This document shows, in pieces, positions 49,052 to 64,000 of a stretch of 64,000 nucleotides of DNA. The notes under the pieces were generated by a model. The model did no database searches and was not told the DNA's origin. It was given only the letters and a program-made list of their open reading frames with translations. The position numbers were made by a program, and so were the translations under genes. Source of the stretch: Lingula anatina (Eukaryota > Animalia > Brachiopoda); contig CM120640.1 of the NCBI GenBank assembly GCA_051362555.1, positions 27,242,503-27,306,502 on the forward strand, given 5' to 3'. The stretch's first letter is position 1; every line of letters starts with the position of its first letter.

Positions 49052-51145
49052 GGTATTATCCCGTGGTATTGTCGCGTTTTTCCACTATATTTTGCAATGT
49101 TACTGTGATCTTCATTAATATAGCAGACCGAAAAAGAAGAATTGCGTGACAGTCTTAATATCATAGCGCATTCTGACGTCTGCCAATGGAGCTCGTGCCT
49201 AAATTACTTCTATTGATTGATATCATCGTCTGAGAATCTTCTGGATGGTCGTTAGAAGATTAACAATCAGACTCATACGTAACTAAAGCCATTTCATCAT
49301 ATCGGCTATTAAATGTAGATATAAAGTTCCAGTGTATCCATAATAATACATTTTATGCTTTTGATATTTTTGGCTGTTTAACCTAGAATTTCAAAGCATA
49401 TGGATATTTATCTACAACTTGGCGGCCATTATTGGACATATAGCATTACAGTAGGTCTTTCCAATGCAGTATGTCGGTAAATGACGGATCGAATAAGGTG
49501 TCGATGCTCGGGGTGTCCCGCTGGGCTAAACTGATTCACAGCCGTGAACTTTATTCCAAATATATTAGTTATTTATCTTTTTTTTATTCTATGTCAACAC
49601 GTTATTTCATCATTTGTGCATAGTTTCTGAATGATTCTTGGTGTCTGAGGCCGATTTTGATCTGATAATATATCGAGGGATCGTTCAAAGAAGTAAAATG
49701 TTCCCCTGTGTATGACGCCTACTTTTAGTAGCTCATAAGACAGACTCACTTATTGGTAAGGTGTACTTTGATGGGTCCAAACAAAGAGATTCGGGTTAAA
49801 AGAACACGTTAAAACAAAACAATGGTACTGTTTCGAATTTCGATATGATTGAATTTGATGTGACGCATCACCTTTCAAACCTTTTAATAATATGATGAAT
49901 AAATATAGGTCACATAAAACTCAAAATATCTTTCGAATTTCTTACGTTTTAATTATAAAACACAACAATACATACACGAACTTCTGTCATGGGATTACTG
50001 CAGGAACAACAACATTTACACCAGACTTTTGTAATTAAAATTTGGATTAATCATCACATTTCGCTATAACTATCATTTATTACCAGCAGGTCAGGGATTT
50101 GTACCTCTGTCAAATATGAATTTTGGTTATTCGACAGAATTATTTGATGGTGAGAAAATTTGGTTAAAATCGAACTCTTCTTACACAGAACGAAGACATG
50201 TAAAACACATTCAGGCACGTGTTCTAGTGTAACAGTAACATTGAACATTTATATTAGTTTTCGTGTCTAAGGTAGACCTATTTAAATAAAATAGCTCTAA
50301 CTTTTCTTTGTAAACATACCACCTATCACATGTAAACATTGATTTTCATAACAGACGTTTTCAGCACAAGTCGAGGCACTTGAATGCCTATGCTTAGCAG
50401 GTACCTGATAATCTACAGTGTACACCTTATACAAACATGTTGTAAGTCCTATAAGGCTTATATACAACTTATGTTCAGCCAAATGCCTGAAACGCAATTG
50501 ATTGGCGGAGAATGTCATGTTCTTTTTATCTAATACAATTAGTATTTTACCTGCTTTCAAGAAACAACACTACTAACGTAAACTATGTCGTTAAGCGAAA
50601 ACTTGCTTTTCGTGACATAGATAGTATATACATTTCATACAATTCTGTATTATTAAAGTACTATGGATAGGAACCAATCTGCAATATTTAACATACAGGA
50701 GCAACATTTCTATCACTCCATCCTCACTCCTTTCAAACTGATCGTTAAAACTTTGGCAAATTCCTAAAACTAGTCTCATTCTGGTCATCCAGAATTTATT
50801 GCTGTCAGATGGAGTAACTGCCGTTAGTTCCGAGAAGGATGCATCTAACTAGCGGTCTTACAGTTTGAGCACCTAGCCACTTTGTCGGCCCTCTTGTACT
50901 CCTTAAATTGTAAGTAAATGTGCAGAGAAAAAAAAGGGGCGATCTTTGGTTTTCGACATTTTGGACACCACTGGTTTCCCACTGATTCTCGTCTTTGAAA
51001 AGGAAATTGTTTAGACATACACAACCAACACGTCATTTGAAAAGAAAGACAATAATCTGCAAAGCATTATGTATAATACCGAAGTTTTAATAGGGAAAAA
51101 TTGAGCCTTTTTGAGGAAGAATTCTTTTTTTGTCCATTGGTGTGA

Positions 51146-52792
51146 TTACAAGTAGTGAGTCGCTGGCGCAGAACATATGGCTTCTTTTTCACTTACTGGA
51201 GGCTTTTCTTTTGCCTCGATCATTGCAAGCAAACGCTGTAATAGAGTATTGTAAATATTTAAAAAAAAAGACATATCGAAAAAAAAGGTTATCAACCCAC
51301 GATACAATTTGTAATGTTTACTAAAACACATTGTAATAAAACCCCTTTGAACAAATTATTTAAAAAACGTAAACCTAATGAAATTTCGCGTGTTAAATCA
51401 ACACAAAAATATTATGAAATTTTACCATCAATGAAGAATAATTCATATATACCTGTTTCAGCCCTCCTTTAGACGTAAGCAACAGGTATACGACGTAGGT
51501 TGGTATCGGGATCAGAGACGATAACGTGATCATCCAGCCTATAGCAATAGCCCAGCCAGGGAAAGGTTCGTCGTGGGTGTAAACAGGCGGTTTGTACCCC
51601 ACGATGGAAAGAATGAAGAGGGTCTGGAAAAGACGGGATCTATTCTGAATTACAGTGACCGATTGACCATTGCTTAAAATTGATTTCGGAAGCAAGCATT
51701 TGCACAATGTTATCTTTGGCGTTGTCCGTAATATCGATCCTCTAAGCCCGTGCTGGCAAGCCCCGTAGCCAAAGGTTTTTGAAAAAACAAAACAAAACAA
51801 AAAAAAAAAACGAAGAAGCCCTGTAAAACCTTGTAAAGGGTGTCCTAGTCACTTTCCTGGGACCAGCCTTATTCGTTAATTACTGCTAGTTAAAAATCGA
51901 GGAGCATGACCTATCTGCCTCAACTTGGCTACGATACTGCCACAGATGGTATATGTGCAAAGCATCATTTGTCAGGTCGGTAGCTGACTAACAAGCAAGA
52001 ATAGCATTTCTGGTTATATACTAGACTTGTTGTCATAGACTGGGTTCCCATACTTAGATCGATCCGTCTGGATCGACCTAACTCCCTGGGGGTTCACGCT
52101 AAATTGCTATCAGCTCTAGAGGTTTAAATGTCTGTCACGCCTACCGAATCAGCTAGGGGTAAGATAATTACCACCTAACAGTTTTACTAGACGTGACAGA
52201 CGTTTAAGCCGGTTAGTTTGATAGCAATTTAGTGAGACTCCCCAGGGAAATAGATCGATCCAAATATCTGTGGCAATGGTCCCATAAACGCCACAAAAAA
52301 TACATATACTTATATGACTAATAGCCACACCTACCAGCAGGAATACGGGACTGATAGCCACCCAGCAAATTTTCCAATATATACCAGGTTGAAATCCCAG
52401 CATCGTTTCTATATCACCACTGAAACGATTCACCCCTGAAATACAAGATAGAAGGACTTATTGAAAGTCGCCTTTTAATTAATTTTTGGGCGTAGCAACT
52501 CTTATATAATCTTTTGTTTCTCTATATCATATGAAGGTTAGACAGATATCTATGTATGAATCTTTCTGATGATATTACATAGGTACTTGTAAATTAACAA
52601 TTCGACTTTATATAATAATCCCATTGACTTAATAATGAAACGACCGAGCCCGTTTCAACTTTGCATGTTTTGATACCGTACGTAGCACTTACCGTAAAAC
52701 CAGTTCACCGCAATAGCTTCAATGAAAACGATGAAGAGAATTGAGATGGGGACACCATGTGAGTCTAGTAATACGAACACGTTATATCCGCC
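51146..52792 (-). CDS. SLC6A4: SERT 3' exon block 2: duplicated TM10, TM11, TM12 and C-tail exons, intact, likely alternative 3' end of the same gene
   Basis: 52693-52792 (100 nt, [33 protein letters not shown]), 52335-52435 (101 nt, [34 protein letters not shown]), 51453-51623 (171 nt, [16 protein letters not shown]...SKGGLKQ), 51146-51235 (90 nt, [29 protein letters not shown]); canonical splice sites, no stops or frameshifts. Confidence 0.88.
52069..52262. repeat. Long imperfect inverted repeat (fold-back; possibly a decayed MITE)
   Basis: 52069-52143 matches the reverse complement of 52188-52262 at 58 of 75 positions without gaps (hand count); the 44-nt spacer has a further short stem (taggggtaa / ttaccaccta). 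Confidence 0.85.
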
Positions 52793-53689
52793 CTAGCCGA
52801 AAGCAGCGGTGAAAAAGATAAAAAAGGTCTATCGTCAAAACAAATAGTATAATCGGTACGGTTGCCTTGCTTCAGATGTGAAGAAACCGTGCGTGTTTTT
52901 AACATTCTCTTACACACATGAGTGTCAGAAGAAAATGAAAGTATAGGGTACACCAGGCAGAGAGGGAATTATACGGGACACATGCTGTGCAAGCCACCAC
53001 AAATATTTATTTTTCATACTTTCACCACAAACGACAGAAATTAAAGTAGAATTATGAAATTGTGAACATATGAGACCTTTCGGCTTGAGAGGTTTGATTT
53101 TGTTTCCTTTATCCAATCAAAAGGGGACAAGTTGGACACGATGAACCGAGCGAATAATAGGGCCTATGTATCAACTTTGTGTTAAACTTTACACATAAAA
53201 TGGAAAAATACATTTATTTGATTGAATCAATATAAATCAAAGTCTGGATAAAGGTACCATAAAAATTAAAATAGAAATACGACTCCTTTTCACGTTTACT
53301 GACCAGTTCAACTTTCCTGCGCCTAGCTATAGATTCCATTTGAATGTCTCTTCTGCTGTGAAAACTCTGGTCCATTGGCTAACATTGGTAAATAACTAAA
53401 TACCGTTTATTAATTAGGTCAAATAAAAAAAGCTATTTTATATCATACGAACACATTTTCCTATATTTATACACAAGTGCACTGGTTTAATACTTTGACA
53501 AATACAAAGTTAATTAAAAACATTACTAGTTTCTAGATAATACTTGCTTAGCAAGATAATAATTATAATCTAAAGGAAAATAAATACACGAAGATAATGA
53601 CAATACTTAACCTTTGTCTATACGTATATTAAATACATCTATACATCTTTTTACATAACGTTAAACTAATGTATCACTAACACCAGGAT

Positions 53690-53885
53690 ATTTAGTTGAA
53701 CGTTTTTACGCCAAAAGGTAACCTTCGTCTTCAAGAACATCTTTACTTTCTGTAGGCTTATAATACGATCTTTAGAGACCCCTACCGCCATTTTTTCTAT
53801 AATTTTACAAAGACATGACCGATATCGAACACGGACTGCATTGCAATATCTTAACGATTGCCTTTACACCCTGGCCAGGCCTCTG
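53690..53885 (-). mobile_element. Possible degenerate tRNA-derived SINE fragment
   Basis: On the - strand an A-box-like tggccagggtgtaaaggc is followed about 25 nt later by a B-box-like gtgttcgatatc, and the stretch ends ggcgtaaaaacgttcaactaaata. Single copy in the window; weak. Confidence 0.2.
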
Positions 53886-54178
53886 CAGCTAAGGGATGTA
53901 CAGTAATCTTAGGGTACACATTTTACACTTTTTTCGTACTCTATATTAACAATCACTACTTTGTATATATAGTGGAATGCTTATTACATATTAAATGAAA
54001 CTGAAATACACAACATTCCAAGCGTTGACTACGTGATTTTTTTAATTAATCAAAGCACATCTTAAGTTATGCACCAGGCATACTTGTACTACAAGCGGTT
54101 CAGAATATTGTGTAATTCCCCCTTTTCTGTCCTTTATAAGCTACAGCAGAGCACATTCATCTTTATTGTCGAAGTCAT

Positions 54179-56006
54179 TTAAATGAAATGCGTGGTGGGC
54201 ATAACGTACTGTACGCCGTTCGTTTCATCAACTGCTGGTCTTTCTTCTGGCGCCACCATCAACAGCAGACGCTGAAAATAAATATAAAGTTTGCATGTTT
54301 CACAGCAGCACATTTACAGATTGTGTCATCTCACCAAACACATTTATTGGACATCTAAATAATCCATCGAGTTAAAAAAATTATTATAACATAATAAGAA
54401 AAAACATATAATATATTTATCAAACGCCAAATATTTATTCAAATTGAATTGAAAAAAATCTCAAACTTGTACATTTCCTCTGATGCATCCATCCATTCAT
54501 TCATTCATTAGTGTTTGGAATTTAACATACCTCTTTAAATTTTCCTTTGGTAATAATAAACTTATATATAATATATATCGGAATTGGGATTAGAGAGGTC
54601 GATGTGATCGCCCAGCCTATAGACACTACCCAATCTTGGAAAGGTTCACCAGTAGTATAATTTGGCGGCTTGTACCATACAACCGAGAGAATAAACAAAG
54701 TCTGCAAAGAAACATATAAACCATAATCATATCTGACTTGTTAATGCGGTATTTTGCCCCTGCTAGTAACTTCTATTGTTATCGTTAATTCTACTGCACC
54801 ATTTATTACTTGTGTGATGGATTTAGAATTACCAAAACAAGTTCCACATGTGTTTCATGGAAAATGTCATAATATACAAATATAAAAGTATTGTGTTCTT
54901 ACCAGAAGAAACATAGGACTTATGATCGCCCAGCATATCTTCCAGAAGATCCCGGGCTGAAATCCTAACATGGTTCGTATATCCTGGCCAAACCGGTTAA
55001 CACCTAAATTATACACTGGATCGTGATTTTTTAATTCTAATACATTCAACAGATTATTTTTAACTGATCGTAGACCTGTGTTGCACAAGAACAAATATGT
55101 ATTTTTAAAGACAAACCATATTTTACATTTTGATAAAAAAGTGAAATAAGCACTCTGCGAGTGTATACTAAACTACAGTTTCAGCATTTTTAAAAAACAG
55201 TATTGTTTTTCATGCAGTTTAAGCATATAAAATGTAACAAGATTTAAACTTACCATAGGCACGAGCAGCAGTATTTCAAGCGTTTAAGGAAATGGCGGAT
55301 AATACGGAGGGCGATGCCCCATGCTTATAAAGCAAAGGAAACTGCGAAGTGCCCAGCTTTAAGCTGGAGAAGCAGAGGAAGTAAAAAAAAAAATTAAGCG
55401 TTTCATTACAACATTAGATCCCACATATCACCAAAGCGATTTCTCGAAACCTCAAGGGTAGCGCAACTCTTACAGTCAGAGTTGAATAAGCGAGCGATAT
55501 AATTCTATCTACTGGAAATCGGTTAAGGAGTTAAAACCAGGAAATATGTGTGCGGCAACTATTTTAAAAATGCACAGGCCATGATGCGAAAGCAAGCGTT
55601 TTAATGCAAGAGCTCGGCTGTCTTGAGTTACGTGCGGCATGTTTTTGCGTCGTTTATGAAAAGTATTAATCCCGTGAAAACACTCAATCCAAAAGACATT
55701 CAAGCCAGGAAAACATTGTAAAACCAATGTAATAACCCACTCCAAAAACTAAGTAGCTACACATTGAAAACCATGCCAAGGAATGAAGAATGGTAGAAAA
55801 TGCATGTGGAAAAGAGGAAAGGAAACGACTGGTTTTAATATTAAAAGTTCATGGGAAAATAGCGCGTGTCAATCATGCCAAAACCTGCCTGGAGCCGTTC
55901 ACTTACCATAGCACCAGTTAACAGCTATACATTCTAAGAATACGATGAACAGAATGGAGATTGGAGCACCGTGTGTGTCCAACAGAAGAACCAATGAATA
56001 TCCTCC
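54179..56006 (-). CDS. SLC6A4: SERT 3' exon block 1 (TM10, TM11, TM12, C-tail)
   Basis: 55907-56006 (100 nt, [33 protein letters not shown]), 54903-55003 (101 nt, [34 protein letters not shown]), 54531-54701 (171 nt, [16 protein letters not shown]...TKGKFKE), 54179-54271 (93 nt, [30 protein letters not shown]); all with AG/GT sites. Confidence 0.9.
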
Positions 56007-58177
56007 CTGGCGAACAGGTGAAAATAGAAATTAACTGAATGAATGAAATTAAAACAGGGATCCACAGACAAATAAGACCAACGTTTTTCAACGTGAATCT
56101 TGTCTCCAAAAATTATTATACAGAAAAACAAAAACAAACAAACAAATAAAAATAATTATAAGAAGAAGTAAACTAAGGTAACAACAACATGCAATTATCA
56201 TGACCAAAGATTGGGTTTGAACAAATAACAAACATTGCAAGATCGATAAAGAAGGCGAACTGATCATTATCATTACCATCTTTACAAGTATTAATAGAAT
56301 CATGTTTCGCTGAAAACCCATCGGCATTTAGGTTTGGCTCATTGATGGCATTTTCAAGAAGAAAATATTTAACTCTAATAACCTTTACATTTAATGATCT
56401 ATTCTTACCCCTTCAGGTGTCGTGATAATACAGAATATACAACTGGCATCACTCACCTCTGTGGTCGTTGAGAGAGCGCCAAGGAAGCAGTAGACCATCA
56501 GTCCAGCCACGAACAACTCTCGTCTTTTACCCACAGTCTGCGGGAACTCGTCACATATCCCTGTGATCAGTGCTTCAAGCCCTCCAAACTGCAAAATGAG
56601 TGTGGATATGATATTTTATTAATCATATTTGATGTTTCAAAGAAAAATATATTGACGCTTCATAATAACGGCATCGGACACCAATTTCTTTGCAATGGTG
56701 TAAACTGGGTTTCACCATATTATAAGATTCCCAATCGGTCTTTCGATCAAGTTATTTTTCTGAGAGTCCCTCAAGTTCTGTGTAATTCCTAGAATAAAGA
56801 GAACAAAACAGGCAATACATTAACATGCAAAACCCAGCACTGTATAAAATGGTCATGAATAAAGAATATGGAGACAAAACTTACTGTGCTGTCCAGTCCC
56901 AAAGTGATTAACATAAGAAAGAAGATGATTGCCCAGAACACGGAACCCGGCAGTGCCGCTATGGCCTCTGGGTACACGACGAAGACTAGACCAGGTCCTG
57001 CGAACAAGAAACGAGTTATTGATATGACATGTGTCATACAATCGCAGCAATGACAATGACAATTTTCATTGTGTAAGCAAGACTTGCATGCCATGGGCAT
57101 ACATTGAAATACAACTGCGAGACAGTCCCGTTTCCTTCTTGTTCTTACTGGCAATATGGACGAAAACAACTAATCGCTGATGGCTTTTCGACATTTTCAA
57201 AATGAAATTGCGTAACCTGACTTGAGGAAGATACTAAATGAAAAAATTAAATACTCAAAAAGGCCACAAAAGAATAAATGGAAGTTCGCAAGAGAAATCT
57301 AATTGTTTTAAGGTAATCATGATGCCAACACACATATTTTTCATTTCAGCTGATATAATATATATCGCTATGACACTGAACCCTATAGCAGGGTACCACC
57401 CACCATCTTGTGCGACAGTTTTGATGTCCTTGCCCTCCATGAAGGCCATGTGCCCCAGCACTGAGAACACCACGAATCCTGCCAGAAAACTGGTGGCACA
57501 ATTGATGGAACTTGTCAGCAACGCGTCACTGGAAGCGTAAAATACAGGGCAAATAGTTCTGGTGCACAGAATTACTAGCTTACACAATACTGTAGGAGTT
57601 ATTTTTGCTCCGGCGCTTTGTGTATGCAAGTCTAGAGAAGTCAGAATGTATCTAAGTTGATTAATTTATTCGTAAAATGTTCAGCAGGGGTGTTATGTTA
57701 GTATGAAGGGGAACTCTCGCATGAAGAATGCAGTTCAGATGTACTTTTCACAAACCTGTAGCAGTTATTATGAAATTTGTTGTAACTTGAAAGTGCCAGC
57801 AAGACACCAAAGCCGGGTCCCAGGGAAAAGAAGATCTGTGCCGCAGCATCTATCCAAACCTGAAGATTGAAAAGTACAAATTGCCTTAATACATGGAAAA
57901 TATATGAAGAAAAAAAGCAAAATTGTTTTCTCTCTGTTCCTCATATTAGTGGGTATTGCAAGATTTCCGTGAACGTCTTACCTGTGTAACAAGTAGCCGG
58001 TCCCATTCCGGTCTGAGATAAAAGAGAATACCACTCAATGATCCTTCCAAAGTAACGCCGCGGATAAGCAGGATGAACAGTACTATGTACGGCATAGTAG
58101 CGGTAAACCACACAGCCTTATGAAGAAAGAAGAAGTTACATTAAAGGAATGCAAATATTTTAAAATCACTATTTGTT

Positions 58178-58213
<36 letters not shown>

Positions 58214-59600
58214 GGCACGCGCGCGCGCTCGTGTGTCATTTCGAAAAGGCCACATAATTTGTATATTTTCTTTTCTGTTTTAACTACGTTTCCAGTCATG
58301 AAGCCTTGAATACATTACGAAGTATTCAACTTAATGCGTACATAAAGTTTTTAAATTAAAATATGTCAAAATGCATTCAGTGTCTAGTTCATAAAGCGTT
58401 TAAACAAACATACACACGTTTTAACAAACACACAAACACCTTTAAAATTGTCAAATCGTAAATTTGATATGATTGTTAACATATTATTTTTCAAATGAAA
58501 TAAATAGGCCTTCTTTATTTTTTAAATGAAATATATACTTTGACTTTCCTTAAGCCCTATTCTCACCTTGCCAGATGTTTTGACTCCTTTCCAGAGTGCA
58601 AAATACACTAAAACAAAGACGGCCATGAGACATAGCGCAATCTGCCATTTGACTGGACCAATGTTACCGATGTCGTCCACATGACCTTCACCTTGTAGCT
58701 CAAGAACTCCACGACTAGAATGATCACAAACAAAATATCATATGTTACATTTAACATAGTTGGTCTGCTAAGAATGTATGTGTTGGTTACCAAATACACT
58801 TCGTGTCGATTTTTGGATCGTCATTAAATAAAGATATATACTTGTCCACTCACAAACTAGCAATCAAATTATCAATTAGAGACTGGTAATGCACCATTTG
58901 TTTTAATTATATTACATTGTACAAGGTCATGATTATTTATGTACCAGAACAGAAATAAATTGATTAGAATTGAATATATTAAAATGACGGTGAACAACTT
59001 TGAGACTTCTTCAATTGCAAATGCTGTATATAATAAAAGAAATGATGCAAGTTGCCAATCGGAATACACATGGGATTAAACGAGATTTTACAATACAACC
59101 AACATTTCCAATAATACTCACAATATTAAAAGATTGCCGATTTTGTATCTAAAATGGCTAGCAACGGGTTATCAACCGAAAAACGATTGCTTCCTGTTTA
59201 TTTATCTTTTAAAACATCTGGAACAGTGCTAGTGGAACAGTGTGAAACAGGATATCACATGAAACGTTGCGACTTTTTGTAGATTGGTGTGTCTGTATTT
59301 ACCGGAAATATTCTACGAAACCAGCAATCTAGATTTTTTTATATCAAAACAGATATACTTATGTAACTTACTAAAAGAATTCGTGAGAAGCAAGCTTGGA
59401 ATAGTTATTTTTGGCCAACGTTTTGTTTAGCGACCTGTCTCGGAATGTTGTACAGTTGTCCGTGTTCCAAGGGTTTCCGCAGGTGGCCCACGGCACTTCA
59501 CTCGCCATGGAAGAGAAGAGGTAATAGAACGCCCAGGCGATGATGGTGTTGTAGTAGAATGAGACCCAGGTGGCAATGAAAATGATGCCAAAACCGATGC
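54179..59600 (-). CDS. SLC6A4: Sodium-dependent serotonin transporter (SLC6/NSS family), 5'-partial; isoform using the proximal 3' exon block
   Basis: Shared exons (transcript order): 59372-59600 ([24 protein letters not shown]...[10 protein letters not shown]), 58567-58714 (...[11 protein letters not shown]), 57982-58116 ([10 protein letters not shown]...RGVTLEG), 57756-57859 ([34 protein letters not shown]), 57404-57528 ([14 protein letters not shown]), 56885-56997 ([13 protein letters not shown]...LGLDST), 56457-56588 ([16 protein letters not shown]). Then 55907-56006, 54903-55003, 54531-54701, 54179-54271 (stop). LALSSYN and LDSTFGGLE match SERT rather than DAT/NET as I recall them. Confidence 0.92.
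58180..58236. repeat. (TG)n microsatellite followed by a (CG)n run, in a SERT intron
   Basis: (TG) run 58180-58211 then gcacgcgcgcgcgctcgtgtgt. Confidence 0.92.
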
Positions 59601-63400: not shown

Positions 63401-64000
63401 TTTTATTGAGAACGGTAATAGTTTTTACGCTACATAGCAAAAACAATGATATAAGGAATGTTGTTTATGTGCAAAGATTCCAAGAATTTGGCTTCTTGAG
63501 GTTGTGCTTTTGTCATATCTTTTTCCCGTATGTCTTTATACTCAAGAATAAGTCACAGAAATGTTGGAACCAGTGAAATTTTTTAAATGACCGTCGGGAG
63601 TTTACCGTTTCACTGCTTTTTCTTAAATGCCGCAAAAAGCCTGAGAGTAAAAAACGAGACTTTCCATTAAGTACACGCCCAAATGTCATTACAAAATGAC
63701 GGAAAACTGAACAAATCAGAGAGGTCGATTAGAACACAGGATAAAACACTCACCTTGACAGTACGGCATTCCATTTCTCAGAATTGTAGTTTAAATACCA
63801 GCACAACGTACATTTTTATGTTTGCAGGAGAAACAATAAGTATTTTTCTAATCCGTCGGAATTTGAAGTGATCTATCATTTATGCTATTAAATAGATAGC
63901 AAACTACGAATTTGACAACATATAACAATAATAGAGGCGGCTCTGTACATGGAAAAATCAACCATACTGAGATCAGAAAATTTGACCTCACCTAACTTTC

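Follow-up and report, generated by a model that had tools for sequence, protein, structure and literature searches.

A serotonin transporter gene of Lingula anatina with two tandem four-exon 3' cassettes, likely yielding isoforms that differ in TM10-TM12 and the C-terminal tail

The 64,000 nucleotides of the brachiopod Lingula anatina analyzed here (assembly GCA_051362555.1, contig CM120640.1, positions 27,242,503 to 27,306,502; hereafter the window) carry part of a serotonin transporter (SERT) gene on the minus strand, and the 3' end of this gene consists of two tandem four-exon cassettes, A (56006-54179) and B (52792-51146). We consider it likely that this is one SERT gene whose last four exons were duplicated, and that the exon encoding transmembrane helix 9 (TM9) is joined either to cassette A, as reads show, or, likely, to cassette B. 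Two complete transporters would result, their predicted differences lying mainly in TM12 and the C-terminal tail and likely affecting trafficking or regulation. The duplicated 3' end itself is real and old, and it is probably functional.

An earlier note, made from the sequence alone, described an intact tandem duplication with canonical splice sites, and its coordinates and exon sizes proved correct. The exons measure 100, 101, 171 and 93 nt in cassette A and 100, 101, 171 and 90 nt in cassette B. All eight have AG acceptors, the six internal ones have GT donors, and phases match between cassettes. Joined to the seven core exons (59600-56457), each cassette continues a single open frame to its own stop, the part of the protein lying in the window being 482 aa with A and 481 aa with B. 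When core+A was searched against the 64 kb by tblastn, each core exon was found once and the three internal cassette exons twice. Cross-block E-values for exons 1-3 range from 1e-12 to 1e-18, well beyond chance, while the second copy of exon 4 was recovered by the B query alone (E 0.025). Nothing in the interval between the cassettes (54179-52792) matched core+A, in agreement with the earlier claim that it holds no TM1-TM9 exons.

The window part of SERT starts at TM3. A search of the window with SERT residues 1-305 returned nothing better than E 0.75, and the TM1-TM2 exons, not found here, presumably lie past position 64000. It is conceivable that cassette B belongs to another SERT gene as its 3' end, the 5' exons lying elsewhere, either interleaved upstream or joined by trans-splicing, as the window covers the gene from TM3 onward only and the region upstream of 64000 lies outside it. 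We regard this as highly improbable: no core exon is duplicated in the 64 kb, a single Lingula cluster appears among the best 120 matches, and RefSeq joins B to the same core.

Table 1. Exons and flanking untranslated regions (UTRs) of the SERT gene in the window, with the evidence for each (EL, extracellular loop; IL, intracellular loop; X4 to X9, RNA runs unless marked RefSeq)
Feature	Positions	Strand	Evidence
Core exon, TM3-EL2, earliest part of SERT found in window	59372..59600	-	core identical to RefSeq
Core exon	58567..58714	-	tblastn, open frame
Core exon	57982..58116	-	tblastn, open frame
Core exon	57756..57859	-	open frame; splice joint 57857/57980 in run X7
Core exon	57404..57528	-	open frame
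Core exon	56885..56997	-	joint to next exon, 9 reads
Last core exon, TM9	56457..56588	-	donor 56457: to A by reads; to B by RefSeq model and depth inference
Cassette A exon 1 (A1), TM10	55907..56006	-	core-to-A1 joint, 13 reads, 3 of 4 runs
Cassette A exon 2 (A2), IL5 and TM11	54903..55003	-	A1-to-A2 joint, 17 reads
Cassette A exon 3 (A3), end of TM11, EL6 and TM12	54531..54701	-	A2-to-A3 joint, 7 reads
Cassette A exon 4 (A4) coding part, C-tail and stop	54179..54271	-	A3-to-A4 joint, 5 reads
Isoform A 3' UTR and read-through zone	52840..54178 (lower bound approximate)	-	read depth, motifs
Cassette B exon 1 (B1), TM10	52693..52792	-	open frame; thin depth in X5, X7, X9
Cassette B exon 2 (B2), IL5 and TM11	52335..52435	-	~200 read bases in X5; intron bin empty
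Cassette B exon 3 (B3), end of TM11, EL6 and TM12	51453..51623	-	100% match to RefSeq isoform X3; thin depth in X4, X7
Cassette B exon 4 (B4) coding part, C-tail and stop	51146..51235	-	open frame; depth in X4, X7
Probable isoform B 3' UTR	50060..51145	-	AATAAA at 50800 and 50081; scattered depth to bin 49984-50467 in X4

Sequence comparison supports placing the gene in the SLC6 family among the SERTs (SLC6A4 orthologues). Both isoforms cover positions 1-522 of the 524 in the Pfam SNF domain profile (PF00209; 740 and 731 bits). The best match among PDB sequences is human SERT (720 bits), ahead of NET (692) and DAT (at most 675), and in the full-length protein the aspartate typical of monoamine transporters aligns within the TM1 motif. 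In a tree of the core, Lingula groups with SERT-named proteins of spiralians (SH-aLRT 99), and a wider clade takes in SERT of Drosophila and vertebrates as well (96); true outgroups were few, with only one NET-named half and no true DAT. The Lingula isoforms would be predicted to carry out Na+/Cl--dependent serotonin (5-HT) uptake.

Both isoforms are already present in public automatic annotation. The RefSeq models of Lingula SERT, which are automatic only, correspond to this gene and to both of its proteins: isoforms X1 and X2 (XP_013392305.1, XP_013392306.1) are core+A, 782 aa, and isoform X3 (XP_013392308.1) in the same cluster is core+B, 781 aa, and matches exon B3 at 100%. Exon A3 as a protein query found no match, probably because the cluster representative is core+B. 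Between window and RefSeq the 328 aa of the core are identical, as are 153 of 153 residues of B, and A differs at 3 of 154, which indicates that the window represents another haplotype that also carries both cassettes.

Comparison of the two cassettes supports an old duplication with both copies under purifying selection, as the earlier note had proposed. Its hand-counted protein identities for the three internal exons (24/33, 27/34 and 33/57) are exact, and its remark that shared residues often use different codons holds for 46 of the 78 shared residues with degenerate codons. Across the 124 codons of exons 1-3, synonymous differences are saturated (pS 0.79; 25 of 34 fourfold sites differ) at a pN of 0.19. 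The resulting pN/pS of 0.25 (bootstrap 0.18-0.33), which sets a ceiling for dN/dS, is well below 1, the outcome that the earlier note had named as support, and the unchanged B protein in RefSeq agrees with it. Constraint on both cassettes has been long-term. When the A and B regions were aligned by blastn, only exons aligned, plus one 28-nt match and two short chance-level matches; the introns are unalignable. In a 38-row cassette tree with Lingula as its only brachiopod, A and B are sisters (100/98; stem 0.41, tips 0.44 and 0.56), and their 67% identity equals that of limpet and sea hare, or of the nemerteans Lineus and Tubulanus, across the same region. It follows that the duplication lies on the Lingula line; at comparable rates, its age would probably run to hundreds of millions of years. 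B is no further from other SERTs than A: among 121 matched proteins (self matches included), the higher score went to B for 83 and to A for 33.

The same divergence bears on whether the tandem copies could be an assembly artefact, two haplotypes laid end to end. The species is highly polymorphic, and a DAT-like SLC6 model (P0233) contains an identical doubled TM10-TM12 block. The Lingula cassettes, however, share only 64-69% DNA identity, their introns cannot be aligned, each is found in the window as well as among the RefSeq models (with three A residues different), and reads map to both. The artefact is already refuted by this divergence, and we assign it a negligible probability.

Two observations concern variation at the locus. 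Among the read differences listed in the coding exons of A, 9 of 13 are synonymous (from 40 of 63 rows). Over 52963-54268, the last exon and UTR of A, many fixed differences and indels separate the reads of runs X7-X9 from the window, which points to high polymorphism, or to reads from a distinct population that bears this species name.

RNA reads from the same species show directly that A is spliced, and it is dominant in the best-covered runs. Seven of nine runs were mapped (6-30% of each run's reads), with a threshold of 3 reads for a joint; runs X1 and X2 gave almost no depth on the gene. The joint list of the first mapping was crowded by a palindromic repeat at about 52030-52290, and the joints given are those among the rows listed. 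A second mapping, of X5, X7, X8 and X9, was confined to positions of at least 52300 and thus to joints other than B2-to-B3, B3-to-B4 and the A-to-B3/B4 hybrids. In X7, X8, X9 and X5, respectively, reads crossed the core-to-A1 joint 6, 1, 6 and 0 times, A1-to-A2 10, 3, 4 and 0 times, A2-to-A3 2, 3, 1 and 1 times, and A3-to-A4 3, 1, 1 and 0 times. AATAAA motifs follow the A stop at 54167, 53411, 53218 and 53011, and read cover of the A UTR extends to about 52840, beyond the last of these, so read-through past it does occur.

Cassette B is transcribed at a low level. B2 carries about 200 bases in X5, similar to the roughly 177 on A2, with 55 bases on B1 and none in the intron bin between, and X4 and X7 have thin depth at B3, B4 and downstream. 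In X9, depth sums for the class of reads without the core-to-A1 joint give 41 bases ending at the B1 acceptor and 31 reaching the core donor, compatible with a single core-to-B1 read. B probably represents a minor isoform or one limited to certain tissues. We suggest that the choice of 3' cassette, at the level of the 3' splice site, is coupled to polyadenylation, in line with the account of tandem 3' clusters in PMC6191721. Cutting and polyadenylation within the A 3' UTR would leave only cassette A available, and polymerase read-through would let donor 56457 bypass 3,664 nt and join the B1 acceptor, the message then ending in the B UTR. Control of this choice by tissue would fit the same scheme.

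In human SERT, TM10-TM12 and EL6 form an allosteric 5-HT site, as described in passages of PMC8635421. By alignment, A and B agree at five of the seven residues named for this site and show conservative swaps at the remaining pair (T/S at human E494, V/I at F556). The position of human T497 in TM10, a residue that we take to line the central site, differs between the cassettes (alanine/valine). Identity between isoforms is lowest in TM12 (14/27) and the tail, and the tails are largely different, though both finish in T-H-aromatic-aliphatic. An N-Y-T sequon lies in the short EL6 loop encoded by exon A3 (54531-54701), whereas isoform B has no such sequon; the loop may be too short for glycosylation. 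With the allosteric residues mostly shared, and TM12 and the tail the most divergent stretches, we favor one substrate for both isoforms and differences in trafficking, partners or regulation, for which the C-terminal variants of NET offer a parallel; we would call this functional step a toss-up.

Two ideas were rejected. A SEC24C/D switch between the tails fails on the retention of the relevant motif in both, and the 'EPF' motif of EL6 is not unique to Lingula, a similar motif being present in a chiton paralogue. In a tree of exon 3 only, this chiton paralogue joins A and B without resolution.

Several observations weigh against our preferred reading of one gene with two functionally distinct isoforms. 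No joint of B reached 3 reads in any of the seven mapped runs, among the joints listed, and in the three best-covered runs 13 core-to-A1 reads stand against at most one inferred for B. In X7, 301 bases over B2, B1 and 52783-53104 fit one read pair running unspliced from the A UTR through B1 into B2; they make some of the B signal look like read-through or unfinished pre-mRNA and lend no support to a core-to-B1 joint. Among the 25 longest of 207 inverted pairs, taken without a conservation filter, none would make a convincing GC-rich docking/selector pairing of the core intron with the sequence around the B1 acceptor. Both tails keep the endoplasmic reticulum (ER)-export RL motif with a hydrophobic residue at +2 (motif and SEC24 as referenced in part of PMC3581386). 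AlphaFold predicts the full fold for both isoforms (pLDDT 82-97 across residues 631-760), in keeping with the 12-helix LeuT-type fold of SLC6 symporters, the core+A model has the same helix pattern as core+B, and a fold search with core+B matches NET, DAT and SERT structures (TM-score by target 0.88-0.95), but such models are expected for any close homologue and are weak evidence. No other brachiopod or phoronid was recognized among the matches, where the best single-stretch cassette identity is 53%.

The RNA observations give some room to the idea that B is untranslated at present and transcribed solely as read-through from the A UTR, RefSeq isoform X3 being over-predicted. The core-to-B1 joint is absent among those listed, and the X7 pair resembles unspliced read-through into B1. 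We nonetheless hold this to be improbable, given that the four B exons are open and exact in size despite saturated synonymous sites, two haplotypes show 0 of 153 aa differences, one X9 read fits the core-to-B1 joint, and there is depth in the UTR region of B itself. The earlier note's reading of one gene with two isoforms is supported: RefSeq models both forms and reads show A spliced, while the core-to-B1 joint is inferred from depth sums. Of the two junctions it had proposed to check in RNA reads, 56457 to 56006 was found (13 reads) and 56457 to 52792 was absent among the joints listed.

It is also possible, though we think it somewhat unlikely, that both isoforms are made and are functionally interchangeable, the cassettes being kept for different 3' UTRs or tissue use (regulatory subfunctionalization). 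This would suit the mostly shared allosteric positions and the common RL motif and tail ending, the A and B UTRs share no alignable sequence by blastn, and the balance of A to B seems to vary between studies, on very few reads. Interchangeability sits poorly with the divergence of TM12 and the tail, the alanine/valine change at the T497 position and the sequon present in A alone. On balance we favor two isoforms from one gene that differ in trafficking or regulation.

The window holds other features. The intron between A1 and A2 contains a possible decayed third copy of exon 1 (55353-55254, minus strand; further acceptor at 55363) with a GTAAGT donor and an internal stop. This weak candidate ranks first of 92 strong-donor windows against A1 and ties for first and second of 7056 GT windows. 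Its protein profile match is not significant (E 5.6) and it has no read depth, and we rejected it. The intron between B2 and B3 holds a palindromic element (52069-52262) with 89-nt arms that are 74% complementary, partly covered by thousands of RNA reads from other copies, which marks it as an abundant repeat resembling a miniature inverted-repeat transposable element. Downstream of SERT, a long open frame at 20198-18900 (minus strand) with POU and homeodomain matches is a POU transcription factor gene, and 2 kb downstream of cassette B lies a 328-codon stop-free frame (49084-48101, minus strand) that has no Pfam match.

Isoforms were compared in 20 non-Lingula SERT clusters of up to 15 members each, as selected pairs or against the representative, and one of the 20 contained a homologous swapped block. 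In the nemertean Lineus longissimus, SERT isoforms X1 and X2 (XP_064649560.1, XP_064649571.1) are identical except for a block matching Lingula exon 3 (59% identity over 56 aa). The Lineus block, known from protein models only, would be a single internal exon, whereas the Lingula cassette is terminal and has four exons. Lineus X1 and X2 group together and with Tubulanus, and all four pairings with A or B are rejected (approximately unbiased test, p 0.0002-0.0035), which suggests that the Lineus swap is a mutually exclusive exon pair of independent origin. Elsewhere, the Dermacentor X2 and X3 tails are non-homologous, and several molluscs have two whole SERT-like genes instead. Two SLC6 models, P0233 and P0290, contain identical or near-identical doubled C-terminal blocks that are probably assembly artefacts or very recent duplications; in P0233, DAT-like by eye, the doubled TM10-TM12 block starts where the Lingula cassette does.

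The Lingula gene amounts to a natural domain-swap experiment, in which TM1-TM9 are constant while TM10-TM12 and the tail are about one-third different after long selection. The counterpart region of human SERT contains the allosteric 5-HT site as well as signals for folding and ER export, the roles of which remain under debate, and the two Lingula cDNAs offer a direct test of what this module tunes. The parallel nemertean exon pair hints at repeated evolution of the same swap. A bolder proposal, which we view as doubtful, is that the TM10-TM12 scaffold was made swappable more than once in spiralians, in the Lingula cassette and the Lineus TM12 exon pair, so that one core carries two allosteric or oligomer modules and the isoforms differ in kinetics or drug sensitivity. 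The impact is limited in that the layout is of a known kind, both proteins are in RefSeq, and Lingula is no easy laboratory model.

The novelty implied by the earlier note was overstated, since both isoforms had been annotated automatically and duplicated 3' cassettes had been published for a sodium-coupled transporter, Drosophila CG42235/kumpel. Our literature search, incomplete in coverage and excluding genome-paper supplements, found no paper on the Lingula isoforms or on duplicated cassettes in a monoamine transporter. Tandem 3' clusters are described in PMC6191721 as duplicated multi-exon cassettes spliced to one common exon, with one cassette per message. In Lingula SERT, too, the common exons are followed by homologous terminal cassettes of several exons each, an arrangement that it shares with Drosophila CG42235/kumpel (SLC5A), PGRP-LC and pipe. 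Read depth and AATAAA motifs lie behind both Lingula stops, where each cassette may have a 3' UTR and poly(A) site to itself. In the fly genes the cassettes number 3 to 10 and RNA pairings compete, a mechanism that the layout itself does not require, whereas Lingula SERT has two cassettes and no convincing pairing was found. Kumpel is a sodium-solute symporter whose isoforms share their N-terminal helices and differ in the remainder (PMC8790523, in part). Its isoforms share only 1.5-3 helices, while those of Lingula SERT share the whole TM1-TM9 core. Among monoamine transporters, the C-terminal splice variants of mammalian NET (SLC6A2) differ in expression and function, as part of PMC2916826 reports. 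NET is, like Lingula SERT, a monoamine transporter with C-terminal isoforms. As far as is known, the NET variants change the cytoplasmic tail only, through non-homologous ends. In Lingula SERT, unlike NET, the homologous duplicated exons would exchange three membrane helices.

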